Assembly: GCA_965219925.1 (NCBI GenBank)
Contig: OZ244795.1
Location: forward strand, 199,395 to 263,394
Direction: 5' to 3'
Origin: Dehalococcoidia bacterium
GTDB taxonomy: Bacteria > Chloroflexota > Dehalococcoidia > Lucifugimonadales > UBA3495
Length of the DNA: 64,000 nucleotides
In this document: in pieces, positions 11,336-41,243 of the stretch
Position numbering within the stretch: position 1 is the first letter of the stretch
Layout of the letters: each line of letters begins with the position of its first letter
Position numbers and translations under genes: made by a program
Notes under the pieces: model-generated
The model's input: only the letters and a program-made list of their open reading frames with translations
What the model was told of the DNA's origin: nothing
Databases searched by the model: none

Positions 11336-13723
11336 TCATGATTCCTCCTGCTCCAACCTCTCCCCCATGGGCATCCGGTAGCCGACGCGAAGCTCGGTGA
11401 AGATGTACGTGGGGCTGCTTGCGTCGTCGCCCAGCTTGCGGCGGAGGTTCTTTACGGCGGTGCGCACCGGCCGCGAGTCGCCGGAGCTCCCCAGGCCCCA
11501 GACCCGTTGCAGCAGATGGTCATGGGTCAATACCAGACCGGCGTGGACCGATAGCTCGACCAGCAGCGAGTGCTCGATGGCGGTCAACCGGACCGGACGA
11601 CCGGCAACGCTCACCCTGCGTTCGGCGTAGTCGATGGTCAACTCGCCCAGCACATAGGGTTCCGTGGGTTCGGGCCGGGCGGTGGCCTCCCGCCGGCGCA
11701 GGGCCGCCCTGATCCTCGCCGCCAGCTCCGTGGGCGAGAAGGGCTTGACCACGTAATCGGCGGCCCCGGTGTCGAAGGCCCGGGCGATGACGTCGTCCTG
11801 GCCGTACACCGACAGGAAGATGACCGGCAGGTCGGCAATTTCGAAAATGCCTTTCATCAGCTCGATCCCGTCAGTCCCCGGCAGCATCAGGTCCAACAAG
11901 ACCAGGTGGGGCTTTTCCGCCTCTATGAGGCGGTACACCTCCTCCGAGTCGGCGGTCACAATCGGTGCATAGCCCAACTTGGAGAGGGCGTCGCGGACGT
12001 GCCTGAGCGCCTGCGGGTCGTCGTCCACGACGAGAATGCGCTGCTGTCCACGCTCCGACCGCCGCGAGGGGGCGGAGCGCCGGGCGGGTGCGGCTGCCGC
12101 ATCAGTCCCGGCTTCCATGACCACCGGAATCGTGAAGGTGAACCGCGCCCCCAGACCTTCTCCGTCGCTCTCGGCCCAGATGCGGCCCCCGTGGGCCTCC
12201 ACGATCCCCTTGCAGATGGCCAGGCCCAGGCCCGAACCCCCCAGACCGCGCCCCTGGTCCTCGTCGCCGGTCCGGGAGAACTTCCGGAACAGGTGGGGCA
12301 GGCGCTCGGCCGACACGCCCCGGCCCTCGTCTATGACGGAGACCGCGACGTGGAAGTCCTCCCGCACCGCGGTCACCCGGATGGAGGACGACTCGGGCGA
12401 GTGCCCGGCGGCGTTGGAGAGGAGGTTGCCCAGGACCTGGACGATGCGCCGCCGGTCCGCCATGACCCAGGGCAGGTCCGGCGGCAGGTCGATGCGGAGC
12501 TGGTTCCCGCCCCCTGCGTTCAGGAAGGCGTTCCTGGCCTCGTCCACCAGGACAGCCAGCTCCGCCGGTCCGGGAGCGACCGGCAGCGTGCCCGTCTCGA
12601 TCCGCGCCACGTCCAGCAGGTCGCTGATCAGGCCCCGCATCCGGCTGGCCTCCCGTTCGATGATCCGGTGGAACTGGCGCATCTCGGCGGGGTCCAGGTC
12701 GGGCTCGTCGTCCAGCAGGGTGGCTGCGGAGCCCCGTATGGAGGCCAGCGGCGTTTGCAGCTCGTGGCTGACCATGCCCAGGAACTCGGCCCGCAGCCGT
12801 TCCAGGTCCTCCAGGGGCGTCATGTCCTGTAGGGTCACGACCACGGACTGGACCTGACCCTCCTCCGAGTAGATGGGCGTGGCGTTGACCAGGGTGGTGA
12901 CGCTCCGCCCGTCGGGGATTTGAATGACGATCTCCTCGGCGCGCACCGTCTCACCGGCGCTGAGCGCCTGCGCCAGGGGGAACTCCTCCAGGGAAATCTC
13001 CCGCCCGTCGGCGCGCCGGAAGGTCAGCACGCCCAGGAGCTGCTCCAGAGGGCGGCCCGGCGTATGCAGGTCGTTGAAGATCCTTCTCGCCTCCCGGTTC
13101 AGCGACGCCAGGGCCCCGGTGGTGGCGTCGAACACCAGGACGCCCACCGGCGAGGTGTTGATCAGGGCCTCCAGGTCGGCCCTGGCCCGCTGTTCGTCCC
13201 GGTGCCGGCGGGCGTTGACCACGACCAGCGTCGCCTGGGAGGCGAACATCACCAACGTCTCCTCATCTTCCCGGGTGAACTCCCGGCCGCCTTCCTTCTC
13301 GGCCACGTAGAGATTGCCGACGTGCTCGCCCCGGTGACGCATCGGCGCTCCCAGCAGGGTCTTGATCGGCAGGTCGGGAAAGCCCAGCGACCGCATTTGG
13401 CTGGCGACGTCCCCGAATCTCAGGGAGCCCTGAATCGAGCTGAAGTACTCGAAGAGCGCCGGACCCTCCGGCAGGTCCAACATCCGCTGCTGCTCTTCGG
13501 GAGGCATACCGGAGGTGATGAACTCCAGCAGCTGGCCCGATTCGTCGAAGGTCGTAATCCCGCCGAAGCGGGCGTCGGTCAACGACCGGGCGCTGTCCAT
13601 GACCTCTTGCAGCACCGTGTCCGGGTCCAGGCTCTCACTGACGCGGAGGCTGGCCTCGCTCAACCGGGTCAGGCGCTCCCTTAGCGCCTCCATCTCCCGC
13701 CGGTGCTCGTCGGCTTCCTGCAT
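11336..13723 (-). CDS. fused cytoplasmic sensor kinase-response regulator: GAF-PAS-HisKA-HATPase-REC-OmpR/PhoB winged helix
   Basis: H-box SHELQTPLASIRG; G-boxes GRGLGGSGLGLAICKGIV; REC ILVVDDD..HLVLLDLMLPGTDG..KPF; C-terminal LTAIEHSLLVEL..VRTAVKNLRRKL..LRVGYRM. There is no TM segment. The start MQEADEH (ATG 13723) is preceded by GGAGGG, and the duplicated remnant at 19987-20049 supports it. Confidence 0.9.
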   Translation of the reverse strand: MQEADEHRREMEALRERLTRLSEASLRVSESLDPDTVLQEVMDSARSLTDARFGGITTFDESGQLLEFITSGMPPEEQQRMLDLPEGPALFEYFSSIQGSLRFGDVASQMRSLGFPDLPIKTLLGAPMRHRGEHVGNLYVAEKEGGREFTREDEETLVMFASQATLVVVNARRHRDEQRARADLEALINTSPVGVLVFDATTGALASLNREARRIFNDLHTPGRPLEQLLGVLTFRRADGREISLEEFPLAQALSAGETVRAEEIVIQIPDGRSVTTLVNATPIYSEEGQVQSVVVTLQDMTPLEDLERLRAEFLGMVSHELQTPLASIRGSAATLLDDEPDLDPAEMRQFHRIIEREASRMRGLISDLLDVARIETGTLPVAPGPAELAVLVDEARNAFLNAGGGNQLRIDLPPDLPWVMADRRRIVQVLGNLLSNAAGHSPESSSIRVTAVREDFHVAVSVIDEGRGVSAERLPHLFRKFSRTGDEDQGRGLGGSGLGLAICKGIVEAHGGRIWAESDGEGLGARFTFTIPVVMEAGTDAAAAPARRSAPSRRSERGQQRILVVDDDPQALRHVRDALSKLGYAPIVTADSEEVYRLIEAEKPHLVLLDLMLPGTDGIELMKGIFEIADLPVIFLSVYGQDDVIARAFDTGAADYVVKPFSPTELAARIRAALRRREATARPEPTEPYVLGELTIDYAERRVSVAGRPVRLTAIEHSLLVELSVHAGLVLTHDHLLQRVWGLGSSGDSRPVRTAVKNLRRKLGDDASSPTYIFTELRVGYRMPMGERLEQEES

Positions 13724-14026
13724 CTTCCCTCCCTGACCCGGACTGTGGACGCCACCCGGCTCCACGTCGTCAGGCGCCCGGCTGGATGCGGAGATCGGGC
13801 TTCGAGACGCCCTCGGGCAGCCGGTGTCAATTGTACCGGATCGGGCAAATACTCACAATAACATCACGGTAATAAGGGCTGATAATCACGTTGTACTCAC
13901 ATGAGTGGTTTACAATACTCACCGGGCCATAGCACAGTCCGCTTGGCCTGTATCTGCCCGTTAGAGGGGTTGTATTGGTCTGCCTTCCGCATAGGATACA
14001 AGTTGCAGTAGCGTCGGAGAGCGCAC
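13668..14026 (+). repeat. duplicated divergent-promoter module, copy 1 (includes the first 18 codons of the kinase gene)
   Basis: Aligns along its length with 19993..20344. Identity is highest over the kinase 5' end, the TCAC boxes, the -10 element and a ~100-nt leader. Confidence 0.85.
13851..13916 (+). promoter_or_regulatory. four phased TCAC direct repeats plus TACAAT -10 (Pho-box-like activator-dependent promoter)
   Basis: TCAC at 13853, 13864, 13886 and 13897 (spacing 11/22/11). TACAAT at 13911-13916 lies 10 bp after the last box. There is no convincing -35. Confidence 0.55.
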
Positions 14027-14282
14027 CGGCGGTATCCGCCGCCGTGAGGACGCGCCTCGACGAACGCAATCCTTCTACCCCCCGACGAATATCGTCACCG
14101 GATAGTCCCCCAGCCCCGGCTGTCCCCTTCCTTCGCACCGCCCACCTCCCCCGTAGTTCCGCTTGCCCGGAGCTCCCGTTCCTGAACGCGTACGGGCAGA
14201 CCGGGCGGTATCCCTTTGCCTTCCGGGCAACGTCCCTGCCCGCCGTCCAGACTTTGCAACTGCCTGAAGTGAGGTTAGCATC

Positions 14283-17200
14283 GTGAAACGCCAACTGTCC
14301 TTTGCCGTTCTTGCCGCCCTGGGAGCCTTCGCGCTCTTCGTTTTCGCCGGCGTCCCATTGCCCTACCAGGCCCAGGCCCAAGCGTCGCCGTCGGTGGCGG
14401 TCAGCCTCTCCTCCGACACCGTGGAGGAGGGATCGGCCATCGCCGTCACCATGAGCTTCAGCGGCCTGGAGTCCGACGCCGACACCGCAACCAAGGACTA
14501 CGTCTTCCGGGCCGACGTGGTGGACTCGGAGGACGGGGACGCCAACGGGTGCGAGGACCAGGCCGGAGGCTACGGCCTGGGCGTGGACCGCTACATGTGG
14601 CAGGTGGACGAAGACCCGGAAGTCCGCACCGGGAGCGTCTCCGCCGACTGCCCGGCCGGGGACTACACCCTTCGGGCCAGCATAGCGTCGCCGGAGAATG
14701 TGGAGCTGGCCTCGGCGAGAGCAAGCTTTACGGTGGCGGCGCCAGCCCCGGAACCTACGCCTGAGCCCACGCCAGAACCCACGCCGGAGCCTACGCCGGA
14801 GCCGACACCGGAACCCACGCCTGAGCCCACGCCGGACCAGGAAGACCCCGACCCGTCGGTGGCCCTGATCCTCTCCCCGGACGGCTTCGCGCCGTGGAAC
14901 ACCGAAATCAGCGTCACCATGCTCTTCGGCGCTCTGAAGGCCGACTCCGACCGGGACACCACCGACTACGTATTCCGGGCCGACGTGAAGGACTCGTGGA
15001 ACCGGGACGCCGACGCCTGCGAGGGCGGCGGCCTGGGCATCGACCGCTACATGTACCAGGTGGACCAGGACCCGGAGACCCGCAGCGGGACCATCGCCGC
15101 CGGCTGCCCCATCGGCGGCTACACCATCGAGGCCAGCATCGCCACCGAGGCCGGTGGCGTGGTGGCCTCCGCCAGCGCCGAGTTCTCGATATTCGGGCCC
15201 AGCATCGGCCTGGCCATTCCTGTCGCCGAGCAGGGGGCCGGGGGTGTCCTGACCCTGAGCTTCGGGTTTCTGGCCCCGGACGCCGACGCCGACACCACCG
15301 ACTACATCTTCCGGGCCGACGTGGTGAACGCCGACGCCTGCGAGGGCGACGGCCTGGGGGTGGACCGCCACATCCACCAGGTGGACGAGGACCCGGAGAC
15401 CCACACCGGGACCATCTCCGCCGACTGCCCGGCGGGCGACTACACCCTGGAAGCGAGCATATCGTCGCCCGACGGAGTGGAGCTGGCCTCGGCGAGCGCG
15501 AGCTTCACCATCGCGCCGCCGGTAGAAGACGACGACGACCCGCCCGTGTCCAGGCAGCAGCAGGCCATGCCGCAGGATTTCTTCCTGGACTCCGACAATA
15601 GCAGCCCGGGGGGCATCTGGTCCGACGGCACGACGATGTGGGTGACTGACTCGGACGAGAACAACAAGCTCTACGCCTACGCCCTGGCCGACGGGACGCG
15701 CCAGGACGGCACCGGCAGCACGACCAATAGGGAGTTCGCCCTGCACGCCGACAACGGCTATCCCACAGGCATCTGGTCCGACGGCACGACGATGTGGGTG
15801 ACGGACGGTAGCGACTACAAGCTCTACGCCTACGCCCTGGCCGACGGGACGCGCCAGGACGGCACCGACGGCACCACCAGCAAGGAGTTCGCCCTGCACA
15901 GCGACAACGGCAATCCCCTGGGCATCTGGTCCAACGGCTCCACCATCTGGGTGGCCGACTATGGCGACGACAAGCTCTACGCCTACGCCCTGGCCGACGG
16001 GACACGCCAGGACGGCACCGGCGGCACCACCAGCAAGGAGTTCGCCCTGCACGCCGACAACGGCATTCCCACAGGCATCTGGTCGGACGGGGCGACGATC
16101 TGGGTGGCCGACAGCGACGACGTCAAGCTCTACGCCTACGCCCTGGCCGACGGGATACGCCAGGACGGGGGCGGCGGCACAGCCAACCGGGAGTTCGCCC
16201 TGCACAGCGACAATAGCGCCGCCTTCAGCATCTGGTCCGACGGCACCACGATGTGGGTGAACGAAATCTCTGACGGCAAGGTCTACACCTACGCCATGCC
16301 GACTCCGGTGCTGACCGGGCTGACCGTCAGCCCGGGGACCCTGGATCCCGCCTTCAACAGCGACACCCTGGAGTACGCCGTCTCCGACGTGCCCCACGCC
16401 AGCGGCCGGATCACCGTCACGGCCACCGCGGAGAGCGGGGCCGACGTCTCCTATGAGGACGGCTCCGGCAACACGCTCACCGACGTTGACTCCGGCACAA
16501 CCGGCGACCAGTTCGACCTGGTCGTGGGCGAGAACGTCATCGAGGTCAAGGTGACCAAAGGCAGCCTCAGCCGGACCTACGCGCTGGCGGTCAGCCGCGA
16601 GGCCGCCGTGCCGACGAGTTTCGACCTGCACCCCGACAATAGCAACGCCAGGGGCATCTGGTCCGACGGCACCACGATGTGGGTGGCGGACTCCGCATAT
16701 TTTGAGGGCCGCCCTTATTCTGAGGAACGTGCCAGCAAACTCTACGCCTACGCGCTGGCCGACGGGACGCGCCAGGACGGGACCGGCGGCACCGTCAACA
16801 AGGAGTTCGACCTGGACAGCAACAGCATCTATCCCATCGGCATCTGGTCCGACTATAGAACGATGTGGGTGGGGGACTACTACGGCGGCCGGGTCTATGC
16901 CTACGCGCTGGGCGACGGAACCCGCCAGGACGGCATCGCCAACGAGGACAAGGACAAGGAGATAGACCCGGGACCTCACGCCGACAACGGCGCTGTCTCG
17001 GGCATCTGGTCCAACGGCGTGACGATGTGGGTGGCCGACCCCGACGACGACAAGATCTACGCCTACTCGTTGGCCGACGGAAGGCGCCAGGACGGAGCCC
17101 CCCACGCCTACGTTATCGACGGCATTCGCTACCGGTTCGACGGGAGGCTCTATGACGAGAATGCCGTCAACGAGGAGTTCGACCTGCACCGTGACAACGC

Positions 17201-18668
17201 CAGTCCCATCGGCATCTCGTCCATCGACGAGACGATATTGGTGCTGGACGACGAAGACGCCAGGCTCTACGCCTACGCCCGGGCCGACGGGACGCGCCAG
17301 GACGGCACCGGCGGCGCCGACGACTGGGAGTTCGACCTGAACGACGACAACGGCAACCCCGTGGGAATCTGGTCCAGCAACGAGAAGATGTGGGTGCTGG
17401 ACGGCGACGACGGCAAGGTTTACTCCTACACCTTCCCGATCCCCCCCATGCTGACCGGGCTGAGCGTCAGCCCGGGGACCCTGACGCCGGCCTTCGACAG
17501 CAAGACCCGGGATTACGCCGTCCCCGACGTGCCCCACGCCAGCGACCGGATCACCGTCACGGCCACCGCGGAGGGGCGCGCCCGCGTGTCCTACGAGGAC
17601 GGCTCGGGCAACTCCCTGACCGACGCCGACGCCGACGCCGCCGGCGACCAGTTCGACCTGGAGGTGGGCGAGAACGTCATCAGGATCAGGGTGACCGAAG
17701 GCGAGGTCAGCCGGACCTACGCGCTGGCGGTCAGCCGCGCCTATCACCCGTCCTTGTCTCCGCCGTACCGGTTCACCTGGAGTGATGGGGTCCACTACCA
17801 CAATTGCCAGCTTGGGCCGGAAGATAATCCGTATTGGGAGTTCTCTGTATCTACGGATTCTTCAACAACCCGTTTGGTGCAGCCGAGTGATTTAAGAAGA
17901 AGCGGACATGACGATTGTTCGGCAACGGTGCGGATCCCTCTAAGCTACTTCCCATTGGGTTCGTGCGACCTCAACGCGGACAATTTGTGCATTACGGTCC
18001 GTCACACCGAGTTGTTCGTGGACCATAATACTGGACGTTATACCGCCTCGGTTTCCCGTCCCGTTGTTGTCGAGTTGATTCCGGCTTCCACCGACGCCAC
18101 GCTGCGCGCCCTGGCACTCAGTGGGGTTGACTTCGGCGCCTTCGCGTCAACCACCACGGAGTACGCCGCCAGCGTCGCCCACGCCGTCGCCGAAACCACG
18201 GTGACTCCGGCGGTCAGCGACTACAGGGCTGCCTACGCCGTCAAACTGGGCGGAGTGGTCGACGCCGACGGGACCGTCCCCCTGGCCGAGGGCGAGAACT
18301 TCATCGCCGTGGAGGTCACGGCCGAGGACGGGGAGACGGCTCAGACCTACAGCGTGACGGTCACCCGCGCCGCGCCTCTCGCCGCGCCGGGCCGGCCGAC
18401 CGGGGTGGTGCCGGAGCCGGGGAAGGTGACCCTGGACTGGGACGACGTGGACGGGGCCACCGGCTACCAGGTGGGCCTGTGGCGGCAACCCAATCTGGTG
18501 CCCCTGCCCAGCGATGCCATGCCTGGGGTGACGGTGCAAATGAACGGTTCCGGCGCCACGCTTACCGGCCTGCCTGCCGAATGGTCGCACTACTGGCTCA
18601 CGGTCCGGGCCAGCAACGACGGCGGCGCATCCGGCTGGTCGGATTGGCTCACCCTGGAAAACGGCTGA
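14283..18668 (+). CDS. giant secreted repeat protein (1461 aa): 3x novel two-Cys domain, PEPT linker, ~43-aa propeller-like repeats, cadherin-like domains, C-terminal FN3
   Basis: GTG start with GAGG upstream. Signal peptide AALGAFALFVFAGV..AQAQA. Three ~110-aa DYxFRADV..CE..DRYM..CPxGxYT modules (nt 14385-15518). Repeated IWSDGTTMWV.D...KLYAYALADGTRQDG units. LTGLTVSPGTLDPAFNSDTLEYAV-type cadherin-like beta-sandwich modules. The tail KVTLDWDDVDGATGYQV..VRASNDGG is FN3. Confidence 0.9.
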   Translation: MKRQLSFAVLAALGAFALFVFAGVPLPYQAQAQASPSVAVSLSSDTVEEGSAIAVTMSFSGLESDADTATKDYVFRADVVDSEDGDANGCEDQAGGYGLGVDRYMWQVDEDPEVRTGSVSADCPAGDYTLRASIASPENVELASARASFTVAAPAPEPTPEPTPEPTPEPTPEPTPEPTPEPTPDQEDPDPSVALILSPDGFAPWNTEISVTMLFGALKADSDRDTTDYVFRADVKDSWNRDADACEGGGLGIDRYMYQVDQDPETRSGTIAAGCPIGGYTIEASIATEAGGVVASASAEFSIFGPSIGLAIPVAEQGAGGVLTLSFGFLAPDADADTTDYIFRADVVNADACEGDGLGVDRHIHQVDEDPETHTGTISADCPAGDYTLEASISSPDGVELASASASFTIAPPVEDDDDPPVSRQQQAMPQDFFLDSDNSSPGGIWSDGTTMWVTDSDENNKLYAYALADGTRQDGTGSTTNREFALHADNGYPTGIWSDGTTMWVTDGSDYKLYAYALADGTRQDGTDGTTSKEFALHSDNGNPLGIWSNGSTIWVADYGDDKLYAYALADGTRQDGTGGTTSKEFALHADNGIPTGIWSDGATIWVADSDDVKLYAYALADGIRQDGGGGTANREFALHSDNSAAFSIWSDGTTMWVNEISDGKVYTYAMPTPVLTGLTVSPGTLDPAFNSDTLEYAVSDVPHASGRITVTATAESGADVSYEDGSGNTLTDVDSGTTGDQFDLVVGENVIEVKVTKGSLSRTYALAVSREAAVPTSFDLHPDNSNARGIWSDGTTMWVADSAYFEGRPYSEERASKLYAYALADGTRQDGTGGTVNKEFDLDSNSIYPIGIWSDYRTMWVGDYYGGRVYAYALGDGTRQDGIANEDKDKEIDPGPHADNGAVSGIWSNGVTMWVADPDDDKIYAYSLADGRRQDGAPHAYVIDGIRYRFDGRLYDENAVNEEFDLHRDNASPIGISSIDETILVLDDEDARLYAYARADGTRQDGTGGADDWEFDLNDDNGNPVGIWSSNEKMWVLDGDDGKVYSYTFPIPPMLTGLSVSPGTLTPAFDSKTRDYAVPDVPHASDRITVTATAEGRARVSYEDGSGNSLTDADADAAGDQFDLEVGENVIRIRVTEGEVSRTYALAVSRAYHPSLSPPYRFTWSDGVHYHNCQLGPEDNPYWEFSVSTDSSTTRLVQPSDLRRSGHDDCSATVRIPLSYFPLGSCDLNADNLCITVRHTELFVDHNTGRYTASVSRPVVVELIPASTDATLRALALSGVDFGAFASTTTEYAASVAHAVAETTVTPAVSDYRAAYAVKLGGVVDADGTVPLAEGENFIAVEVTAEDGETAQTYSVTVTRAAPLAAPGRPTGVVPEPGKVTLDWDDVDGATGYQVGLWRQPNLVPLPSDAMPGVTVQMNGSGATLTGLPAEWSHYWLTVRASNDGGASGWSDWLTLENG

Positions 18669-19277: not shown

Positions 19278-19673
19278 TTACGCCGTGGCAGCCTGCCCCC
19301 CGGCGCCGCCCTGGACCCTGGTCAGGACCCCCAGGATTATCCACGCCGGCAGCGAGGCCACCAGGGGGTAGGCGACGACGCCGATGGGACCGAAAAGCCC
19401 TCCGATGATTACACCCCAGGCGGACACCAGTCCCAGCACGACGGCACAACCGTAGGCCAGGATGCGGGACAGGACCTGGGGGCGGCGGTGCATCAGGCGC
19501 ACCGCCAGGGTCAGTGAAATCCCAACCGGCCATGCCAGCCCGAACAACCACAAGACGTCAGCCGCGCCAGGGCCGGTCCCGAATCCGTCAATGCCGAACC
19601 GGAGGAAGGAGATAACCAGCACCAGGGCCGGCAGCCAGAGGGAGAATAGGATAGTACCGATGGCGCTCTTCAT
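19278..19673 (-). CDS. small polytopic membrane protein (131 aa)
   Basis: AGGAGG lies 8 nt upstream of ATG 19673 (MKSAIGTILFSLWLPALVLV). Four hydrophobic segments. Confidence 0.65.
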   Translation of the reverse strand: MKSAIGTILFSLWLPALVLVISFLRFGIDGFGTGPGAADVLWLFGLAWPVGISLTLAVRLMHRRPQVLSRILAYGCAVVLGLVSAWGVIIGGLFGPIGVVAYPLVASLPAWIILGVLTRVQGGAGGQAATA

Positions 19674-19821
19674 GTTCATCACCTCCTGACGTGTGGAATA
19701 AGCCCTTCCCCAGCGCCGGGGAGAATAAGAATACCTTGCGCATGGGGTACTACGTTGGCCGGCCGCCCGCCGGATTGGGGCAGTCCTGCCAAGCCGGAAA
19801 GGGCGGAGGCAATTCCGGGCA

Positions 19822-19986: not shown

Positions 19987-20049
19987 TCACCTGTCAAGCC
20001 GCTCCCTTAGCGCCTCCATCTCCCGCCGGTGCTTGTCGGCTTCCTGCAT
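19987..20049 (-). pseudogene. 20-codon remnant of the kinase-regulator 5' end
   Basis: MQEADKHRREMEALRERLDR-stop versus MQEADEHRREMEALRERLTR at 13723. Confidence 0.85.
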
Positions 20050-20344
20050 TTCTCCACCTCAATTGGGCTGTGGCAGACTCGAGGTTCGCTGTCTTCAGGA
20101 ACCGGCTGGATGCAGATCGGACTTCGAGGCGCCTTCGGCCAGCCGGTGTCAATTGTACCAGTCTGGCGAGATACTCACACTACATCACGGAAATAGAGGT
20201 TGATAATCACATTAAACTCACATAGATAGTTTACAATACCCGCTGGGCTATAGCGCAGTCCGCATGGTCTATGCCCGCCTGTTAGAGGGGTTGCATGTCT
20301 AGCCTTGTGCATGGAATACAAGTTGCAGTAGCGTCGGAGAACGC
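19993..20344 (+). repeat. duplicated divergent-promoter module, copy 2
   Basis: See 13668..14026. Confidence 0.85.
20173..20237 (+). promoter_or_regulatory. four phased TCAC direct repeats plus TACAAT -10, second copy
   Basis: TCAC at 20175, 20185, 20207 and 20218 (spacing 10/22/11). TACAAT at 20232-20237. Confidence 0.55.
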
Positions 20345-20372
20345 TTGGCTGCTCCGGTTATCGCTCGTTGTC

Positions 20373-25210: not shown

Positions 25211-25274
25211 CTAAGGGGGACAGGAAGGTAGCGGCATCGGCCAGCGCCAATACGAGTGAAAGGAGACCACGGAC

Positions 25275-30304: not shown

Positions 30305-30311
30305 GGGAATG

Positions 30312-30452: not shown

Positions 30453-30527
30453 ATGAATTGGCCACCGTACAGTTCGAAAGTACGGTGGCGAGTTTCTACG
30501 TGGTTCGGTTTGTCGTATTAGCTGTTC

Positions 30528-30640: not shown

Positions 30641-30792
30641 CACATGACCGCCCAGAGGGTCAGGCGGTATTGAAAATCGCAATGTCCAGCTATGGCGTAC
30701 TGGCTTTGCTCTTAAGTGAGCAAAGCTAAATCCAGTGATGGATCGAGACTAAGAGTAGCGAGTTAGTGTTTGTGCGGCTGTAGTATTAAAGC

Positions 30793-31314: not shown

Positions 31315-31446
31315 TGTGGGTAGCCTTTACTGGTTTGGCAGGGGGATCACATGGATTATTTTCCGATTGTTCTGGTCGCCATCATACCCACCGTCATCGC
31401 CTTCTGGTTCTTTCTGAGCCGACCACACGTGGGCGTTTAGAGCAAG

Positions 31447-31683
31447 GTGATGGTATTCGTGATTTGGTTTGTATCATCGATCCCACTGGGCGCAGTAATC
31501 TTTGTGTTGTCGGCGTTGTTCTACCTTTCGAGCGGTGGGCACGGGGGATGGGATGCCAAACCGAGGGAAGCGGATATGGCGGTCGCTGCTCCACTGGCGT
31601 TATTACTCAACGGATACCTGGGGCTCGTAGCCTGGTGGTTCGACTCACGCCATAGCCGTCGTAGCGCGAAGACGCCGCCATAG
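31447..31683 (+). CDS. possible small membrane protein (78 aa)
   Basis: Two hydrophobic segments. A 29-codon hydrophobic ORF (31351-31440) sits in the same frame, separated only by TAG plus two codons. Confidence 0.3.
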   Translation: MMVFVIWFVSSIPLGAVIFVLSALFYLSSGGHGGWDAKPREADMAVAAPLALLLNGYLGLVAWWFDSRHSRRSAKTPP

Positions 31684-31972
31684 CGGCGGTTACCGGTAGT
31701 CCTGCGATTAGGTTCCACCAGAATCGGGTACCGCGTCGCGTCCCCTGCTCCAAGGCTATGCCAATGATGACCAGCGGGGCCGCTCCCATCGGGGAGGCCC
31801 CGCTGGTTTGGGTTGCTGTTGCTGCTCCTTGATTCGGATGAAGGGGTCAATTCGCCGGTGGGCTTCGTGCCCTCCGGTGTGGATTCCTCGTCCATCAGTG
31901 TGTCGCAGCAGGTGGTCGGCCAACGGGGGTGTGTTCCACTGCTTCGGGCGTGGCCTGTCGTCCCGCGAGGTT

Positions 31973-33967: not shown

Positions 33968-34043
33968 GGTGCTGGCAGCTCCTGGTCTCTGGCGGCTTTC
34001 GGGGGCGGTTGCTTGCGGCCTGAGGCGGATCCAGCCGACGGTT

Positions 34044-34400
34044 TCAGCTGATGGTGAGACTGGCGTCTCCGGTGGAGAGGATGTTTCCGTCGGCATCCAG
34101 GAAGGTGGCCCGGACGGTGAATACGCCGTCCGGGCAGGATGTGGCGACCTGGGCGTCCCGGGTCTCGGGGTCCTGGTCAACCCGGTTCATGTACCGGAGC
34201 GTTCCCATACCAGCGCCCTCGCATGAGGCAGCGCCGTTCCCCTGGGAGTCAAGCATGTCCATGCGGAACCGGTAGGACATCTCGTTCTCTGCGGGGATGT
34301 TGGCGAAGCTCATGGTCGCGGTGACGGCTGTTTCTCCGGTTTCCATGATGCCGGCGCTGGAATTTTGAGATCTGGGCCTGGGACCGGGGTGAGGCCCTTG
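34044..34400 (-). pseudogene. novel two-Cys domain ORF, out of frame with and overlapping the end of 34310..37171
   Basis: ..SSAGIMETGETAVTATMSFANIP..SYRFRMDMLD..CEGAGMGTLRYMNRVDQDPETRD..CPDGVFTV. Homology to the domain starts upstream of the only ATG (34346), so it is either a frameshifted C-terminal domain of the 953-aa gene or a truncated ORF. Confidence 0.55.
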
Positions 34401-37171
34401 GCTGTGCCGCTGGCGAATTCGGCGCCGGAGACGGATACCACGGTGTCCCGGGGCTGGTTGGCCGGGGTGATGGTGGCGGCGTTGCTGGTTGTGCTGCCGG
34501 CGGTGATGGTAAGGGTCGTGGGGGAGGCGGAGCCGTTGGCGACGAGCAGGTTCACGGTGATCGGGAAGGGCGCCCCCTTGGGGAACCGGGCCTGTACGGT
34601 CCCGTCCTGGTTGCGTTCAAGGTTGACCGGGAAGTTGAACCGGTTGGCGATCCCAGGTTCGGTTCGGACGTAGTTGCCTTTGTTCTCCAGGAGGTTGACT
34701 TCCGTGAGGTGGCGCATGCCGGCGAAGAAGTCATCGGGGAGGTCCCTCAGTCTGTTGACCTGCAGGCCCAGGGTTCTGAGCTCGGGTGTGTTGGAGAGCA
34801 GGTCTGCCGGGACGGCACGCAGTTTGTTGTTGGATAGCGTGAGGCGGTGGAGATTCCCCAGGCCCTGGAATTTAGCTGCGGTGAAACTGCCGGTTTTGTT
34901 GTTGTAGAGGTTGAGCTCTCTGAGATTGGAGAGGTTGGAGAAGGCCCCGTCGTCGATCTCGGTCAGCCGGCTGCTGTAGAGCCACAGTTCACTGAGTTGT
35001 GTGTTCCGGGCGAAGGTATCGGTGGTGACGGCGCCGATCTGGGTGCTGCCCAGGTAGATTTTCCGGAGGTCCGTGAGCCCGTCCAGCAGGCCGTCCTGGA
35101 GGGCGGTGATGGGGTTGTAGTCGAGGCTCAGCACTCTGATTCCCGACAGTCCTTCGAAATCGTGGTCCCTGAAGGTGGTGATGCGCTGGCCGGCGAGGTT
35201 CATTTCCCCGGTGACCAGCGGGAGGTGTTCGGGAACGACGTCGGAGCACTGGGAGACCGGTGGGAGAGGCCCTGTGTTGATGTTTCGGAGCTGGTCGACC
35301 ACGTCGTCACGTACGGCGGGGGTGCGGTCGCAGATGCCGGTTCGGATGGTCAGGGCGATGTCCACGGCTGTTGCCAGCCAGTAGTCGTCCGCCTGGCCCG
35401 GGGCGGGTTCCAGTAGGCTCACCAGCAGAGTTTCCCTCTGGGGTTCGGAGTGGTCCTGGTCGCTGACGATCGTGATGCTGATGCTGGCATCGGTTGCCCC
35501 AGACGGTATGGTGACCTGGCCGTTGCCCGGGTCGGTGTAGTCCGCGGCGCTGGCGTCGGCGGTGTCCGGGTCGGTGTCCGGTTTGACGGCGTATCTGACG
35601 GTGGTGTCTTCGTCATCAGCCCGGTCGGCGCTCACTCTGATGTCCACGGTTTCGCCCTCGGCCGTGTTGAGGGAGTTGACAGTGAGTGAGACGACTTGGG
35701 GAAATTCCGGCTCCAGGCTGTCCCCTGCTGCGGCTTGCAGTCCGCTGTGGGCGCCGGAGGTGAACCTTGGGGAGGTCACGTCGATGGTGACTTCGGCAGC
35801 GTGGTCCCGGTCGGGCGTCATGGTGAAGATGCCGCCGTCCTTGTTGGCCTTGGCGATGGATACGGAGTTTGGTGAAAGGGTCGTGTGCTGGGCGGTCAAT
35901 TGGGCGGCCATGGGAAATGGCGCGTCTTGGGAGAGGGTTGCGGCCATGGTGGTCGGGCCGGTTTGCGTGAGGTCTATCACGAAGGGGAATGGCGCTCCCG
36001 GGTTGCCCGCCATTTTGAGGGTGTCCAGTTGGGCGAGGCCGTTGAATACGCCGTCCGGCAGAGACCCGATGGAGTTGTCCGAGAGGTCCAGGGCGGTGAG
36101 CCCGGCGGGCAGGCCTGCCGGGACGGAGGTCAGAGAGTTGCCCCGGAGGTTGATGCTGGTCAGGGTTCGCAGTTGGGCGAAGGTCCCGCTGGGCAATGCT
36201 GAGAGGGAGTTGCCTGACAGGTCAAGGGCGGTGATGGACGGCTCGTGGCTGATTGTCGTGGTGGTGGTCTCGCTGGTGGTCTCGACGGGGAAGTAGGAAC
36301 CGCTTTGCGAAGAGCTGGGCTGGGTGTTGTACACTCCGCCTCCGCGGGCGGCCAGGTCTCGCATGTTGGCATTGGCGCCGGCGGTCGAGATGGCGCTGAC
36401 CTTGACGCCGTTGGCGGAGTTGGTGGACATGGTGTTGTGAAGGCTGCTGGACAGGTTGAACCCGCCGTCGCTGAACACGATGATGCCGACGGGTAACGCG
36501 GTGTCCGGCCGGCTGGCGGCCTGGCGGTACGCTCCGGTGAGGGCACGGTCTATGTCGGTGTTGCCGTTGGAAGAGAGGCTGTTGATGGCGTTGTTCAGGC
36601 GGTTGGGTTCGGTGGTGAAACCCTGCGCCGTGTGGGCGGTGCCCGAGAAGGCCACGACTGCCATTGGCATGCCGTCTGGCCTGTTGGCGACCAGCCACCG
36701 GGCGCCTGACTTTGCGGTGCGGAGCTCTCCTTTCATGGAGCCGGACTGGTCGATCACGGCGATGACGTAGCCGTTCCGGCTGGTCTCCGTGGTCGAGTGG
36801 GTGTGGCTCTGGTGGCGGAGTTGTTGGAGCAGGTTCTCGGGTATATGCGAGAGTAGGTTCCCGGATGCGTCTATCCCGGTTATGCCGGACATTCCCTGGA
36901 AGTCCGCAGCCGAAAGGGCAGTGATGCCCTGGCCTGATATGTCGAGGGTCCCGGAGAGACCCCGCAGGTGTTCACCGGTTACGTCGGAACATTGGCTTAT
37001 GCTGGGCAGTTTTGCCAGGACGGAGTTTTGGACTGCTTGGTTGCGGTCGCAGAGCCCCGGCAACTCTTCGTGTGCCGACGCTGTATTGCCGTTCGGTGTG
37101 GCGATTGCCAGGATGGCAACGACGGCCAGCAGTGCGGCGGCCAGGATGGATTGGTGGATGAGGCGGTTCAT
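34310..37171 (-). CDS. secreted LRR-vWA-LRR-Calx-beta-like-LRR protein (953 aa)
   Basis: AGGAGAA SD. Signal peptide. LRR cap GLCDRNQAVQNSVLAKLPSISQCSDVTGEHL. vWA MIDAS VIDQSGSM ... IIVFSDGG. ADYTDPGNGQVTIPSGATDASISITIVSDQDHSEP (Calx-beta-like). Second cap GICDRTPAVRDDVVDQL. Confidence 0.85.
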   Translation of the reverse strand: MNRLIHQSILAAALLAVVAILAIATPNGNTASAHEELPGLCDRNQAVQNSVLAKLPSISQCSDVTGEHLRGLSGTLDISGQGITALSAADFQGMSGITGIDASGNLLSHIPENLLQQLRHQSHTHSTTETSRNGYVIAVIDQSGSMKGELRTAKSGARWLVANRPDGMPMAVVAFSGTAHTAQGFTTEPNRLNNAINSLSSNGNTDIDRALTGAYRQAASRPDTALPVGIIVFSDGGFNLSSSLHNTMSTNSANGVKVSAISTAGANANMRDLAARGGGVYNTQPSSSQSGSYFPVETTSETTTTTISHEPSITALDLSGNSLSALPSGTFAQLRTLTSINLRGNSLTSVPAGLPAGLTALDLSDNSIGSLPDGVFNGLAQLDTLKMAGNPGAPFPFVIDLTQTGPTTMAATLSQDAPFPMAAQLTAQHTTLSPNSVSIAKANKDGGIFTMTPDRDHAAEVTIDVTSPRFTSGAHSGLQAAAGDSLEPEFPQVVSLTVNSLNTAEGETVDIRVSADRADDEDTTVRYAVKPDTDPDTADASAADYTDPGNGQVTIPSGATDASISITIVSDQDHSEPQRETLLVSLLEPAPGQADDYWLATAVDIALTIRTGICDRTPAVRDDVVDQLRNINTGPLPPVSQCSDVVPEHLPLVTGEMNLAGQRITTFRDHDFEGLSGIRVLSLDYNPITALQDGLLDGLTDLRKIYLGSTQIGAVTTDTFARNTQLSELWLYSSRLTEIDDGAFSNLSNLRELNLYNNKTGSFTAAKFQGLGNLHRLTLSNNKLRAVPADLLSNTPELRTLGLQVNRLRDLPDDFFAGMRHLTEVNLLENKGNYVRTEPGIANRFNFPVNLERNQDGTVQARFPKGAPFPITVNLLVANGSASPTTLTITAGSTTSNAATITPANQPRDTVVSVSGAEFASGTAKGLTPVPGPDLKIPAPASWKPEKQPSPRP

Positions 37172-37347
37172 TTCTGTTCTCCTGTCCTTTGTTTTGGAAT
37201 GGCGCTGAATTCAAGTCGGCGTCTGGAACCGGCCTGAGGATTTGTCGTTTGGGTTTGTCGAAGTTGGACGGACCCGGTTTGATCTGTACCCCGCAGTGGT
37301 CGGGTCGGTTGGGGCGACCAGGGAAGGCAGGACTTGGTGACCTCCTG

Positions 37348-40300
37348 CTATTCCCAGGTCCGGGCGTAGGCGCGGTGGGAGATTGGGCTGAGCGGGTTCT
37401 CGAATCCGTCGCGGTACGCGGCCACTCCGTACTCGTAGGTGACTCCCGGCTCGGCCGTGTAGTCGACGTACGACGTGGCGGCGCTGCCGGTCTGGGGGAT
37501 CAGGACGTGGTCCTGGTAGGAGTGCCCGAGTGTTCTGGTGTCGGAGATGGGCTTCCGGTAGATGCGGTAGCTGTCCACCTGGTGACCGGTCCTTTCGGGT
37601 GCGTACCAGGTCAGGCTGACGGCGCTGCCGTCGCGGATGGAGATGTTCAGCGAGCGCGGTATGTCATCCCACTGATGCGCGGCTTCCGGGATGGTGGCGG
37701 TAACGGTGACGCCCTCCTGGTGGGGGCCGAGGATGCCGACGTGGTTTTGGGCCAGGACCCGGAAGGTGTACCCGCTGTCGTGGCCCATGTTGATGCGTTG
37801 AGTGGTGACCTGTCCGCCGGCTGCGGACACGTTGCTGTAGGTGTCGGAGTCCTTCCACTTGCCTTGAATGATGTAGCGATTGGGAGCCCCGCTTGCGGGT
37901 TCTTCCCAGTGGAGGCGGACGCTGGCGGCGCTTTCACGGTTGGCGGTGAGGGTCGGGATGGCCGTTGGTGTGGCGATGGTCGCCCGCTGGATGGCGGACC
38001 AGTCCCCGGGCTGGTCGTCAATGAGCGCGCGCATCCGGTAGTCGTGGTACGACTGGTCAGCCGACCAGTCGGCCAGGAAGTGCCCAGCGACGTCGTGCTG
38101 GGTCCAATCGCCGTCGTCGATGCGCTGTTGCAGCTGGTAGCCGGTGACGCCGTCGGATGTCGAGCTGGACCACCGCACCAGCATCCTGGCGCCGAAGGGT
38201 CTGAATATCAGGAGTCGCGGCGGAGATGCTCCCTGGCGCCAGACTGCGGTGGCGACGTCGCTCCATGCGCTGTTGCCGCCGGCGTTGTGGGCGCGGACCC
38301 GGTATTCGTAGGTGGCGCCGGCTGCTGGCCCAGTGTGCCGGTGGCTCAGCTGGGTGGCCGGCACGTCGGCGCGGGTCCAGTCCGCCGTATTCTGCCGACG
38401 GTGTTCGACGCGGTAGCCGTCGATGAAGGCGCTGCCGGGGGCCGTCCAGGTGACCAGGATGTCGTCTCCGTCGATGACGGCGGTTACGCCGGTCGGCTTG
38501 GTGGGTGGGATGACCCACCTGGCGGTGGCCGGGCCGGCCCACGGGCCGTGGCCGGCGTCGTTGTGGGCGCGTACCCGGTAGTTGTACTCGGTGTCGCCTT
38601 GCGCGCCGATGTGCGTGAACTCGCCCTGGTCGGCTGTCATCTGGACAGTGGCGGTCTCCGCCGTGCCGGAGACGCCGTACTCAACCTCGTAGGCGGTGAC
38701 GATCCCGGTGGTCGGCGGGCTCCATGTGACGATGATGTCGCTGGCTTGGGCGCGTGCCGACAGGTCGGTGGGAGCGCCGGGGGTCAGCAGCCTGGTGGCG
38801 CTGAAGGTGTCGGACCAGGGGCCGTTGCCGGCGCTGTTGTGCGCCCGGACCCGGTACTGGTAGGCGACGCCTTCGGTGTTGTCGCGGTGGGTGAAGGCAG
38901 TCTCGGTGGTTGCCAGGCCGACGGTCTGGCGCTCTTCCAATGCCTCTTCGCCGTAGCTGACGTGGTACCCGTCCGGTGTGCCGACTTCGGGGGCGGCCCA
39001 GGACAGGACGATGTTGGTCGCTCCCATTGCTACCGAGACGCTGGTGGGGACGGACGGGAGCAGCACTCGGGTGATCTCCACGTCGTCGGACCACGGGCTG
39101 TCGCCGCCGTCGTTGTGGGCCTTGACGCCCATGTAATGGGTTACGTCGCCGGCGACGTCGGCCAGCCGGTAGCTGGTCTGGCTTTCCGGGAGCAGTCCGC
39201 TCTCGGTGGGTTCGTCTTGGTCGCCCACTTGGTGACGTACGGTATATCCGCTTATATGCACGGATTGTGGCCGCCCCCAGGTGAGGACGATGTCGCCGTC
39301 TTCCAGGGCGGCGTTGACGTTTACGGGGACGCCCGGTGGAGTGACTCGGATGGATTCGGCTGGTTCTGACCAGGGCCCGTTGCCGGCTGAGTTGTAGGCT
39401 TGGACGGCGTAGCGGTGCGTGACGTCGGCTGCTGCGTCGGCGTGGCGGTAGCTGGTCTCGGTGATGTTTTCGGCCAGCGTTTGTGGCGCGCCTTCGCCGG
39501 TGCGATGCCGGACCCGGTAGCCGTCGATGACCGAGTGCTCGGGCGCCGTCCAGGACAGGATGTTGTCGTTCTCTTCCGAGCTGGCGCTGAGCCCGGTGGG
39601 TTGGCCGGGAGTTGCGACCAGCGTGACGGGTTCGGATGCGGTCCAGGTGGAGCCGCCGTATTGGTTGCGGTGCTGCACCCGGTAGCGGTAAGCCACGTTG
39701 GGTTGCGCCGTGTCGTCGGAGTGGCTGCTGTCCGTGGTGTCAACGAGAGTGGTCCAGTCGCCGTCGGTTTGCTGGCGGGCGACGCGGTATTCGACCGCGG
39801 TTCCGGCCGTCGGCGTCGACCAGGACAGCTCGATCGTGCCGTCGCCGGTGGTGGCGGTCAGGCCCGACGGCGCTGCCGGAGCTTCGATGGCGGCGGTGTT
39901 GGACGGTTCGCTGATGTTGTGGGCGCTGTAGGCTATGACCAGGTAGGAGTAGGTGACTCCGGCCTCGACGGTGGCGTCTACCAGGAGGGTCTGGGTGGTC
40001 AGTTCGTCGAGGGTTGCTCCCGCGAGGGTGACGGGTGTGTCGGTTCCTTTGGAGGGATCCGGTCCCAGGTACCGGTGTACCGAGTAGCCGACGATGTCCG
40101 CTCCCGCGGTTGGAGCGTGCCACGACAGCGAGACGTTGCCGTCGAAGGGATCGGCGATCGAGGCGGTCAGTCCCGTGGGCGGCAGCACGGGTTGCGAGAA
40201 TACGGTTACCGCGGTTTCGGACGAGCTCGCGCCAATGGCGTTGCGGGCGGCCACCCGGTAGGTGTAGCTCGTGCTGAAGGCGGCGGTGTTGTCGCTGAAC

Positions 40301-40899
40301 GACGTTGCGCCGGCGTCCGCGGTGCCGAGTTCGGTTTCCTGGTCGCCGTCGGAACGGACGACGGTGTATCCGGTCAGCGGGTAGGCCGTGTCGCACTGGT
40401 CGGCTGCGGGCACCGTGGATGCCAGCCACGTCAGGTTGACGGTGGCCGTTTTGTCGGTGGACTCGGGTTCTGCTATGGCTCCGGTGAGGTCGCCGGGCGC
40501 CGATGGCTTGTCCGGGACATCTGCGGAGGCCGATTCGGATGCTGGGCTGGCGCCTTGGGGGCTGCGGGCCTCGACGGAGTAGGCGTACGTTGTTCCCGGC
40601 TCTACCGTGTGGTCGGAGAACGTGGTGGCTGCTCCGTTGGCCGAAAAGGTCTGGCCGTCGGCTCTGGTGATGGTGTAGTCGGACACCTCGGCATCTGGTG
40701 CATCCCAACTGATCCGTATGCGGGGTTTCTCACCGTCTGGGACGATCAGGTGGGCCAGGGTGTTATCCGGGGTTTCCGGCGGGCCGGTGTTGGCCGTTGC
40801 GTTGCCTTGGTGGATGACGGTTAGCAGGATTGCAGCGGCTGCCACTACGGCGGCGACCGCAACCCAAGGTCTCTTGGATGGTCTCGGTATTCGCATCAT
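37348..40899 (-). CDS. membrane-anchored or secreted protein of about a dozen tandem FN3 domains (1183 aa)
   Basis: N-terminal hydrophobic WVAVAAVVAAAAILLTVI. Repeated ~90-aa units with ..L.W..P......GY.V......Y.Y.V.A.N..G. Confidence 0.85.
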   Translation of the reverse strand: MMRIPRPSKRPWVAVAAVVAAAAILLTVIHQGNATANTGPPETPDNTLAHLIVPDGEKPRIRISWDAPDAEVSDYTITRADGQTFSANGAATTFSDHTVEPGTTYAYSVEARSPQGASPASESASADVPDKPSAPGDLTGAIAEPESTDKTATVNLTWLASTVPAADQCDTAYPLTGYTVVRSDGDQETELGTADAGATSFSDNTAAFSTSYTYRVAARNAIGASSSETAVTVFSQPVLPPTGLTASIADPFDGNVSLSWHAPTAGADIVGYSVHRYLGPDPSKGTDTPVTLAGATLDELTTQTLLVDATVEAGVTYSYLVIAYSAHNISEPSNTAAIEAPAAPSGLTATTGDGTIELSWSTPTAGTAVEYRVARQQTDGDWTTLVDTTDSSHSDDTAQPNVAYRYRVQHRNQYGGSTWTASEPVTLVATPGQPTGLSASSEENDNILSWTAPEHSVIDGYRVRHRTGEGAPQTLAENITETSYRHADAAADVTHRYAVQAYNSAGNGPWSEPAESIRVTPPGVPVNVNAALEDGDIVLTWGRPQSVHISGYTVRHQVGDQDEPTESGLLPESQTSYRLADVAGDVTHYMGVKAHNDGGDSPWSDDVEITRVLLPSVPTSVSVAMGATNIVLSWAAPEVGTPDGYHVSYGEEALEERQTVGLATTETAFTHRDNTEGVAYQYRVRAHNSAGNGPWSDTFSATRLLTPGAPTDLSARAQASDIIVTWSPPTTGIVTAYEVEYGVSGTAETATVQMTADQGEFTHIGAQGDTEYNYRVRAHNDAGHGPWAGPATARWVIPPTKPTGVTAVIDGDDILVTWTAPGSAFIDGYRVEHRRQNTADWTRADVPATQLSHRHTGPAAGATYEYRVRAHNAGGNSAWSDVATAVWRQGASPPRLLIFRPFGARMLVRWSSSTSDGVTGYQLQQRIDDGDWTQHDVAGHFLADWSADQSYHDYRMRALIDDQPGDWSAIQRATIATPTAIPTLTANRESAASVRLHWEEPASGAPNRYIIQGKWKDSDTYSNVSAAGGQVTTQRINMGHDSGYTFRVLAQNHVGILGPHQEGVTVTATIPEAAHQWDDIPRSLNISIRDGSAVSLTWYAPERTGHQVDSYRIYRKPISDTRTLGHSYQDHVLIPQTGSAATSYVDYTAEPGVTYEYGVAAYRDGFENPLSPISHRAYARTWE

Positions 40900-41040
40900 C
40901 TATCCTCAGTTTTGGTGGATAGACTTAATGTAGCGAAACACCCCGTTTCTTTATGCTGTTTAGCCCCCTCCCGGGCTTGGCGAGGCCGATTCGTGAGCAC
41001 GGGAGTTGGCAAGGTTGTTGCCGAAATTCGGAATTCAATA

Positions 41041-41243
41041 CTGCGGATTTCTCACCGTCGCTCGGTAGCGTCCATGTAAGCTGACCCGGATGTGCGGTTC
41101 CTCGCCGCCGGGGACGATCAGGTGGGACAGTGGGTTGCCGGACATGGCCGGCGGGTCTGTTCCGGCGTTGGCGTTGCCTTGGTGGACAACGGCGAGCAGG
41201 ATTGCTTCGGCGGCTATTACGGCGGCGGCCGCAAGCCCATGGT
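41041..41243 (-). pseudogene. remnant N-terminus of a paralog of the FN3 giant gene
   Basis: AAAAVIAAEAILLAVVHQGNANAGTDPPAMSGNPLSHLIVPGGEEPHIRVS versus VAVAAVVAAAAILLTVIHQGNATANTGPPETPDNTLAHLIVPDGEKPRIRIS. DNA aligns with 40690-40900. Confidence 0.7.

Follow-up and report, generated by a model that had tools for sequence, protein, structure and literature searches.

Does a dense cluster of eukaryote-like repeat-protein genes in a bacterial genome work as one regulated system, or is it an assembly of parts under separate control? This question is raised by a 30-kb stretch (positions 11336–41243) of a 64,000-nucleotide segment of contig OZ244795.1 (assembly GCA_965219925.1) from a Dehalococcoidia bacterium of the Chloroflexota; the whole 64,000-nucleotide segment is called the window below. 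A sequence-only reading had described the stretch as a single co-regulated surface adhesion or host-interaction system without a described equivalent, consisting of seven large genes for exported proteins (g1 to g7), fragments of paralogs, and a fused sensor-regulator with matching promoter boxes. Our analysis favors a different answer: the stretch is probably a mosaic flexible genomic island of three separable modules coding for exported surface proteins. With the same degree of confidence we assign to module 1 the intact fused regulator, the divergent gene g1, and the operator between the two; to module 2 a duplicate of this control region, carrying the decayed stub of a regulator, ahead of g2-g3-g4; and to module 3 the convergent group g7-g6-g5, which lacks the TCAC operator and would form an independent operon.

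The regulator gene (11336–13765, minus strand; probable start at the ATG at 13723) encodes a protein with the domain order GAF-PAS-HisKA-HATPase-REC-Trans_reg_C, all of the Pfam domains scoring above cut-off, and the fused sensor-regulator described earlier was thereby confirmed. The protein has no hydrophobic or membrane segment. It has the complete set of parts of a fused phosphorelay, namely an H-box, N, G1, and G2 boxes, a receiver Asp pocket with its Lys, and a winged helix; residues H334, N447, N451, G481, G483, G512, D582, D625, and K674 were invariant in 73 of 73 regulator homologs. The half comprising the receiver and winged helix aligned end to end with both the MtrA and PhoB models, and best with MtrA. 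The protein nevertheless scored below every NCBIfam equivalog cut-off (MtrA, PhoB, PnpS, PhoR, and WalK), the top scores being 205.7 for PnpS (cut-off 400) and 167.5 for MtrA, far below its cut-off of 300 bits.

In Bacteroides hybrid two-component systems, a single chain combines a sensor, a kinase, a receiver, and a DNA-binding domain, and it is encoded beside the locus that it controls. The regulator examined here resembles them in having the pathway fused in one protein and in having many paralogs per genome beside genes for exported proteins, their presumed targets. It differs in being cytoplasmic, with GAF/PAS sensors and neither a membrane segment nor a periplasmic domain, and its neighbors are adhesin-like repeat proteins rather than glycan utilization genes. 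Its output domain is an OmpR-type winged helix and not AraC-type. These features of sensor, location, and output place it outside that class.

The gap of 517 nt between the regulator and g1 contains a divergent control region (13830–13916) with four TCAC half-sites, boxes 1 to 4, at 13853–56, 13864–67, 13886–89, and 13897–900. They are direct repeats with a spacing of 11/22/11. A promoter scan identified a regulator promoter, TTGTGA-17-TACAAT, on the minus strand (13858–13853 and 13835–13830), whose −35 element overlaps box 1, and a TACAAT at 13911–16 faces g1. Because the latter was taken as the putative g1 −10 element, boxes 3 and 4 are placed at about −38 to −22. Regulators of the OmpR/PhoB family bind direct repeats with about 11-bp phasing, and MtrA sites have been reported as GTCACA-type repeats. 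The control region shares with MtrA and PhoB sites the 11-bp-phased direct repeats, and one pair of them covers the −35 zone in the manner of a Pho box; it differs in having four half-sites in a divergent promoter and a regulator that is fused to a kinase and a sensor.

About 340 nt ahead of g1 are repeated ahead of g2 with 86% identity (13690–14060 vs. 19994–20344). This second control cassette (19994–20344) has boxes at 20175–78, 20185–88, 20207–10, and 20218–21 and a TACAAT at 20232–37, and it retains a regulator stub that begins with an ATG at 20050 on the minus strand (MQEADKHRREMEALRERL...), comprises roughly the first 18 codons of a regulator, and meets a stop at about codon 20. The matching promoter boxes claimed earlier were therefore found for g1 and g2, but they serve no further gene group: a profile of the box region found no third copy in the window, and no box was seen upstream of g7 on inspection.

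The distribution of the cassette in other genomes was determined with a regulator-family scan that used one genome per species, and 436 stretches were found to encode relatives. Sixteen loci with regulators 86–98% identical made up a close set, and regulators with 59–71% identity made up a distant set; upstream layouts and neighbors were counted over 80 regulator loci. In the close set the box region was present 25 more times beyond the window, and a single 22-kb locus had as many as four. All four TCAC boxes were kept in 27 of 27 aligned cassette copies and were the most conserved columns. Almost all of the genes just downstream of these operators in the close loci encoded signal-peptide or lipoprotein repeat proteins, and these were of three kinds: those beginning with the new domain described below (like g1), lipoproteins with LRR (like g3), and those beginning with FN3 (like g2).

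At the distant loci the flanking DNA could not be aligned, yet the four-site layout persisted, and a conserved CAATTATACC was present, which is TATAAT on the regulator strand. With a threshold score of at least 21/24, the layout was found in 28 of the 80 regulator upstream regions, compared with none of 80 shuffled sequences and none of 80 coding controls; with a threshold of at least 20/24, the corresponding numbers were 46, 6, and 8. The half-site consensus was about T(C/T)ACA, other phyla included. The idea that half-site divergence tracks the recognition helix was rejected: the helices differ and the half-site cores are broadly alike. We make no claim of insulated paralog specificities. 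A divergent open reading frame (ORF) of at least 400 residues lay within 1.6 kb of the regulator in 44 of the 80 loci. Among the divergent neighbors of 28 distant regulators, fn3 was found in 8, Cadherin-like in 5, and LRR in 5; other neighbors of distant regulators were solute-binding proteins, a peroxidase, a glycosidase, and a second regulator.

Relatives of the regulator number in the hundreds (52–99% identity), often with several copies per genome. Homologs were located on chromosome-scale contigs of Dehalococcoidia, Caldilineaceae, Latescibacterota, Marinacidobacterales (Acidobacteriota), and Spongiisociaceae (Actinomycetota), and on shorter contigs of Vicinamibacterales (Acidobacteriota), Gemmatimonadota, and, in one case, Tectimicrobiota. 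Over the whole protein, any two homologs were at least 52% identical, the median being 62%; between phyla the median was 61% over about 800 residues, with values reaching 75–79%. Between the window regulator and distant homologs, identity was 53% for GAF, 68% for PAS, 70% for HisKA, 73% for HATPase, 70% for the receiver, and 64% for the winged helix. This pattern, as read from the protein alignments, fits strong constraint together with lateral exchange. Lateral exchange of repeat-protein and defense genes has been reported in sponge microbiomes (Robbins et al. 2021, PMC8163846).

Three further observations bear on where these regulators occur. The regulator on a 9-kb contig binned as Tectimicrobiota (L028) is 99% identical to that on a 2.3-Mb Caldilineaceae contig (L037), so that either transfer took place very recently or the short contig may have been misbinned. 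The Latescibacterota copy of the regulator was found in runs labeled "sponge metagenome," and the Acidobacteriota copy in the same coded hosts as the window. In run X1, at 95% identity or above, the depth over the body of the regulator was roughly five to ten times that of the unique parts of the island, as would be expected if a single community contained many near-identical paralogs.

Comparison among strains revealed extensive mosaicism. The nearest genomes were metagenome-assembled genomes (MAGs) of Dehalococcoidia; the top match, OZ244805.1, is a 4.35-Mb chromosome with a regulator of 98% identity, and it is syntenic with the left flank of the window and with g2, g3, and g4. In the closest chromosome the divergent gene is a chimera of the g1 N-terminus and g2. 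The ENA contig L082 is 98.2% identical to window positions 28368–40096, from the 3′ end of g3 through most of g7; on its left side, a DDE_Tnp_1 transposase (L082 611–1813) occupies the regulator position directly upstream of the operator cassette, and from there onward it has an 86% identical operator copy, a g1-like gene, and a trypsin-PPC-propeller gene that shares only the first 196 nt of g3. In another genome (L081), orthologs of g6 and g5 (83% and 85%) are adjacent, without g7, and no regulator or operator was found within 10 kb of the pair. Contigs from X1 contained two back-joints, 20116→13795, which connects the two control cassettes, and 24679→18087, which connects two Cadherin-like repeats; these joints indicate recombinant or paralogous arrangements of g1 and g2 modules. 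From the chimera, L082, L081, and the X1 joints, it seems that recombination takes place at shared cassettes, signal-peptide regions, Pro/Thr linkers, and repeated domains.

We infer from these results a scheme for the cassette, including regulator-box binding, autoregulation, activation rather than repression, the signal, and the host role, and we judge it to have somewhat better than an even chance of being right. An intracellular signal, read by the GAF/PAS region, would start autophosphorylation at His334, and the phosphate would pass to Asp625 in the same protein or in the dimer partner. Two regulator dimers would fill the four half-sites. The proximal pair, placed like a Pho box within the −35 to −22 zone of its target promoter, would turn g1 on, and the distal pair, over the regulator's own −35 element, would autoregulate. 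At the second cassette, where the regulator has been lost and the half-sites are identical, the surviving regulator or paralogs elsewhere would drive g2, and g3 and g4, by position, would follow g2 control. Module 3 has no such operator, and g7-g6-g5 are probably under separate control. The products would be adhesin-like arrays and an LRR-tethered zinc-protease-like protein, for which binding or processing of sponge matrix or cell surfaces seems most likely, and the modules would diversify by recombination at shared cassettes and repeated parts.

Several points weigh against this scheme. Metatranscriptome contigs of 95–99% identity, probably pooled from many species, lay on the regulator family and on LRR stretches, but none lay on g1, g2, g4, or g5–g7 in samples that may lack this strain; low-depth RNA contigs also lay on a few intergenic stretches and on the small gene at 19278–19682. 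Conservation of the boxes in the 16 close loci could partly reflect recent duplication rather than selection, and repression would be equally compatible with the spacing of boxes 3 and 4 to the putative −10 element. A large divergent neighbor is lacking at about half of the distant regulators, and some neighbors are solute-binding proteins or enzymes; the family is therefore not exclusively tied to repeat proteins. The suggested adhesion or host role is drawn from domain types only.

Co-regulation of all seven genes as a single surface system by the regulator at 11336–13765 now appears quite improbable. The genes are clustered, both strand groups have domain types and the new Ig-like domain in common, and third-position GC is raised across the block. 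However, the operator stands only ahead of g1 and g2, with g3 and g4 included by position, and not upstream of g7, g6, or g5; the g6-g5 pair occurs elsewhere without the regulator; and both the closest chromosome and the 98%-identical strain are rearranged, the latter keeping g4–g7 with its left half swapped and a transposase in the place of the regulator. The earlier view of the island as a single unit was therefore not supported. We give as little weight to the explanation that the TCAC boxes are generic promoter elements, or sites of another factor, that were carried along by duplication. In its favor, conservation is strongest where cassettes have diverged recently and also have about 350 nt of leader in common; the half-site cores, moreover, are alike across subfamilies and do not discriminate between paralogs. 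Against it, the same four-site geometry is found at the same distance upstream of regulators of only 60–70% identity in other phyla, where the surrounding sequence cannot otherwise be aligned, and this geometry is the one that dimers of the OmpR family use.

Two other explanations concern the function of the products, and both seem unlikely to us. The proteins could be envelope or S-layer-like structures whose mosaicism results from phage pressure (receptor variation) and not from host interaction. The location of the island among defense genes, the extensive shuffling of modules with strain-level presence and absence, and the variable poly-C tract in the g1 leader, which could give on/off switching, would all suit such a role; a signal-responsive regulator, on the other hand, fits conditional expression better than a constitutive envelope structure, and these domain types are enriched in sponge-associated compared with seawater genomes (PMC8163846). 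Alternatively, the exported proteins might capture and cleave sponge matrix or dissolved organic matter for foraging, with the regulator sensing an imported breakdown product, by analogy with the Bacteroides hybrid two-component systems beside polysaccharide utilization loci. The zinc-protease-like domain of g3 with its HEFGHTFGFVH sequence, the trypsin-PPC-propeller gene in the g3 slot of a variant strain, the carbohydrate-binding modules among the nearest folds of the new domain, and the solute-binding proteins or glycosidase beside some distant regulators are in line with foraging, but the island contains no transporters or catabolic enzymes, most of its modules are of adhesion type, and the protease assignment is below family cut-offs. 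We retain the three-module island with its regulator-operator cassette as the preferred explanation. An extension of it, which we offer only tentatively and think rather less likely than its opposite, is that the regulator and four-half-site operator constitute a laterally shared "symbiosis switch" in sponge symbionts of at least five phyla, in which one common intracellular cue acts through many paralogs on near-identical T(C/T)ACA boxes, as one cross-wired regulon, to turn on surface repeat proteins; the unusually conserved sensor would be explained by one common intracellular cue.

Among the genomic signatures of sponge symbionts, eukaryote-like repeat proteins are the best known, and a 2018 study by Bayer and colleagues reportedly described them in sponge Chloroflexi. 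Because the organisms are uncultured, we know of no account of how or when these proteins are expressed. What is known of sponge-symbiont repeat proteins is matched here in the domain types, in a Chloroflexota host associated with sponges, in the presence of restriction and defense genes alongside, and in the evidence of lateral transfer between lineages. A catalog of such proteins has been published, and in it their pairing with defense genes is described as a signature of sponge symbionts (Robbins et al. 2021, PMC8163846). The earlier statement that the island has no described equivalent was thus only partly upheld: sponge Chloroflexota were already known to have islands with many eukaryote-like repeat proteins, and enrichment and lateral transfer together with defense genes have been described (PMC8163846), whereas in a limited literature search neither the fused regulator family nor its operator nor its link to repeat-protein genes was found described. 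The likely new element is the regulator-operator cassette recurring across several phyla of sponge symbionts. Earlier studies counted domains per genome; the present analysis concerns locus architecture, a cis-element, and the cognate regulator family, and it adds an Ig-like domain without a Pfam model. A soluble one-protein pathway with a defined operator can be approached outside the organism, by footprinting and by ligand screening of the GAF/PAS half; the operator motif can be used for regulon prediction in hundreds of existing genomes; and the cross-phylum conservation makes the cassette a candidate regulatory module shared by lateral transfer in a host-associated community.

The transcript of g1 would begin with a long 5′ leader (13917–14282, plus strand), which is conserved in an alignment of 14 leaders and contains a poly-C tract at 14078–14083. 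The tract varied from about 6 to 14 C among loci (L002–L014), and one contig from run X4 had an additional CC, a difference for which homopolymer sequencing error is possible; the variation as a whole could be slipped-strand switching or such error. Analysis of RNA structure in the leader gave a covariation term of −0.24 kcal/mol and double changes in 1 of 20 pairs. A riboswitch-like element was dropped as a candidate, with no covariation and no Rfam match at E ≤ 1. An ORF at 13975–14286, upstream of g1, was also rejected; its internal poly-C varies between loci by non-multiples of three.

The seven large genes in two convergent strand groups, with about 7,300 codons by the earlier count, were borne out: the ORFs total 7,429 codons, and the figure falls to 7,358 when Met 33967 is taken as the start of g5. 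Signal peptides, anchors, and lipoboxes were judged by eye from the translations, and on this basis all seven genes have a hydrophobic signal or anchor at the N-terminus, in agreement with the first description, with lipoboxes LSAC in g3 and LVGC in g4. Pfam matches on the island proteins included LRR_8 (E 5e-131), fn3 (E 4e-88), Cadherin-like (E 1e-49), and VWA_2 (E 6e-15). LRR was found in g2, g3, and g6, fn3 in g2, g5, and g7, Cadherin-like (PF12733) in g1 and g2, VWA in g6, and Calx-beta clearly in g5 and weakly in g6. These are eukaryote-type repeat domains in bacterial proteins and place them among the eukaryote-like repeat proteins of sponge symbionts. The repeat modules listed earlier, the propeller-like one apart, were thus recovered by Pfam; g4 carries none of them.

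On the plus strand, g1 (14283–18668) encodes a signal peptide, three copies of the new Ig-like domain (14382–15518), 51-residue repeats arranged 5 + 5 (about 15582–17462), three cadherin-like domains, a Cys-rich segment, and FN3 at the C-terminus. Gene g2 (20295–24977) encodes a signal or anchor, FN3, two LRR blocks, one new Ig-like domain (23721–24080), and three cadherin-like domains. The product of g3 (25275–28652) is a lipoprotein with two LRR blocks, a weak PKD-like domain, and a C-terminal zinc-protease-like domain, and that of g4 (28816–30054) is a lipoprotein of an uncharacterized family, with no LRR, FN3, cadherin-like, Calx-beta, VWA, or propeller module. On the minus strand, g5 (31973–33967) encodes a signal or anchor, one new Ig-like domain (33440–33802), Calx-beta, and three FN3; its ORF reaches 34180, and by comparison with the ortholog fragment P0025 the start is likely Met at 33967. 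Gene g6 (34310–37171) encodes a signal peptide, LRR, VWA, a weak Calx-beta-like domain, and LRR, and g7 (37348–40899) a signal or anchor followed by an FN3 array (10 stretches by Pfam). The paralog fragments noted earlier both match parts of g7. One, at 30793–31314 on the minus strand, is a shortened paralog of the g7 C-terminus (FN3), colinear with g7 residues 977–1126 at 38% identity; the other, at 41070–41237 on the minus strand, is a frameshifted remnant with 74% DNA identity to the g7 5′ end. A small gene for a hydrophobic protein, probably a membrane protein (19278–19682, minus strand), lies between g1 and g2 at the site where the second regulator was lost. Its product is unrelated to the island proteins, and the terminator scan placed terminator-like minus-strand hairpins on both sides of it (19850–19831 and 19009–18990).

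The shared novel domain of the sequence-only reading proved to be real. It has about 120 residues and occurs three times in g1 and once in each of g2 and g5; none of these five copies had a Pfam match even at E ≤ 10. A profile search of 1.84 billion representatives identified 439 proteins at E ≤ 0.001, 196 of them at E ≤ 1e-30; these proteins have up to 2,847 residues and up to seven copies each. The alignment contains invariant FR.DV, Cys-Glu, G.G.G..R, and PE motifs and two invariant cysteines. An AlphaFold model (pLDDT 94.5) is an eight-strand sandwich, and its matches in the PDB, at a TM-score of about 0.6, were a porphyran-binding module, GbpA, NPC2, the Wzt carbohydrate-binding domain, and RbmA. 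On the evidence of this model, the domain is a new sequence family of a common Ig-like fold. A specific function deduced from the fold was rejected, the PDB matches being generic Ig-like ones at that TM-score.

The repeat of 51 residues in g1 forms two blocks of five with the motif IWSDGTTMWV...KLYAYAL, and it has more than 500 homologs, some of them from Ekhidna MAGs. Many of these homologs also carry SGL (PF08450) or arylesterase (PF01731) domains, which are six-blade propellers, or cadherin or Cadherin-like domains. The g1 protein itself matches only PF22729 (NCH3), with no match to the SGL or arylesterase families, and sequence searches of the PDB gave no significant match of the repeat to propellers. 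A propeller-like structure is plausible from these sequence relationships; of the module predicted earlier, the repeat itself is therefore real, and its assignment as a propeller comes via homologs only. We also noted that PF22729, named "NACHT C-terminal helical domain 3," scored above cut-off on 29-residue pieces of the g1 repeat. Because many homologs carry the PF22729 annotation too, this family may capture a propeller-like repeat and not a helical domain.

The C-terminus of g3 has HEFGHTFGFVH at residue 789 (27639–27671), which fits HEXXHXXGXXH, and its profile matches, to M12 and M6 metallopeptidase models, were weak and below cut-off (Reprolysin_5, 19.5 bits vs. a cut-off of 27; the M6 domain TIGR03296, 29 vs. 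111), with matches to PDB sequences only at E of about 1. The g4 protein had no Pfam, NCBIfam, or PDB sequence match. Its family has at least 188 proteins; among the 120 listed, none has a functional name and nearly all are without a Pfam match. Homologs of g4 lay 10 kb or less from the regulator in 6 of the 16 close loci. The g4 model (pLDDT 86) had a sole significant Foldseek match, Treponema pallidum TP0453 (PDB 3k8h and related entries; E 3.8e-7). Both proteins are lipoproteins, and the modeled fold of g4 resembles that of TP0453, but they have no detectable sequence similarity, they differ in length (412 residues for g4 vs. about 250), and the TM-score is 0.36 on g4 and 0.53 on TP0453.

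The source of the DNA agrees with the earlier suggestion of a sponge symbiont. Wherever run labels could be read, the runs that contain this sequence or relatives of its regulator were labeled as sponge, other runs carrying coded host organisms. The runs that contain the regulator region included four metatranscriptomes labeled "sponge metagenome" and runs of coded host organisms; the nearest genomes, as mentioned, were Dehalococcoidia MAGs. In run X1 the island was covered end to end at a depth of roughly 450–900×, and because of this depth the organism is considered abundant in the X1 host sample. To the right of the island, the segment 41547–42569 had a depth of about 100× in X1, compared with about 500–900× in its neighbors, and it is probably present in only part of the X1 population. 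Third-position GC was 0.70–0.89 in the island genes and 0.49–0.78 in the flanks.

Defense genes flank the island (42–2240, 49164–54309, and 56217–62960). They include a Hachiman HamB-like helicase that has a HIRAN domain and is truncated at the start of the window, DUF4238, an Mrr nuclease, a GmrSD/HEC-06-type nuclease, the Hma methylase HmaB, and the Hma ATPase HmaC. Left of the regulator are two genes, 6142–7392 (plus strand, 416 residues) and 8177–10117 (minus strand, 646 residues), that are 95–99% identical in L001 and had no match in Pfam, NCBIfam, or PADLOC. Searches of Rfam gave nothing at gathering thresholds for the whole window and nothing at E ≤ 1 for the leader or for the 30050–30800 spacer. 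An element of about 170 nt, also with no Rfam match, occurs three times in the window (2780–2948, 30303–30471, and 43544–43712; 62–94% identity); beyond the window it was seen only in L001 and L082, at syntenic positions. Its middle and right copies are overlapped and adjoined by contigs from sponge metatranscriptomes, and it could be a small RNA, a MITE-like element, or a promoter module. The right-hand defense region contains, in addition, a repeat family of about 103 nt, with copies at 43067–43169, 45641–45743, 47772–47874, and 55671–55773 that are 61–71% identical.

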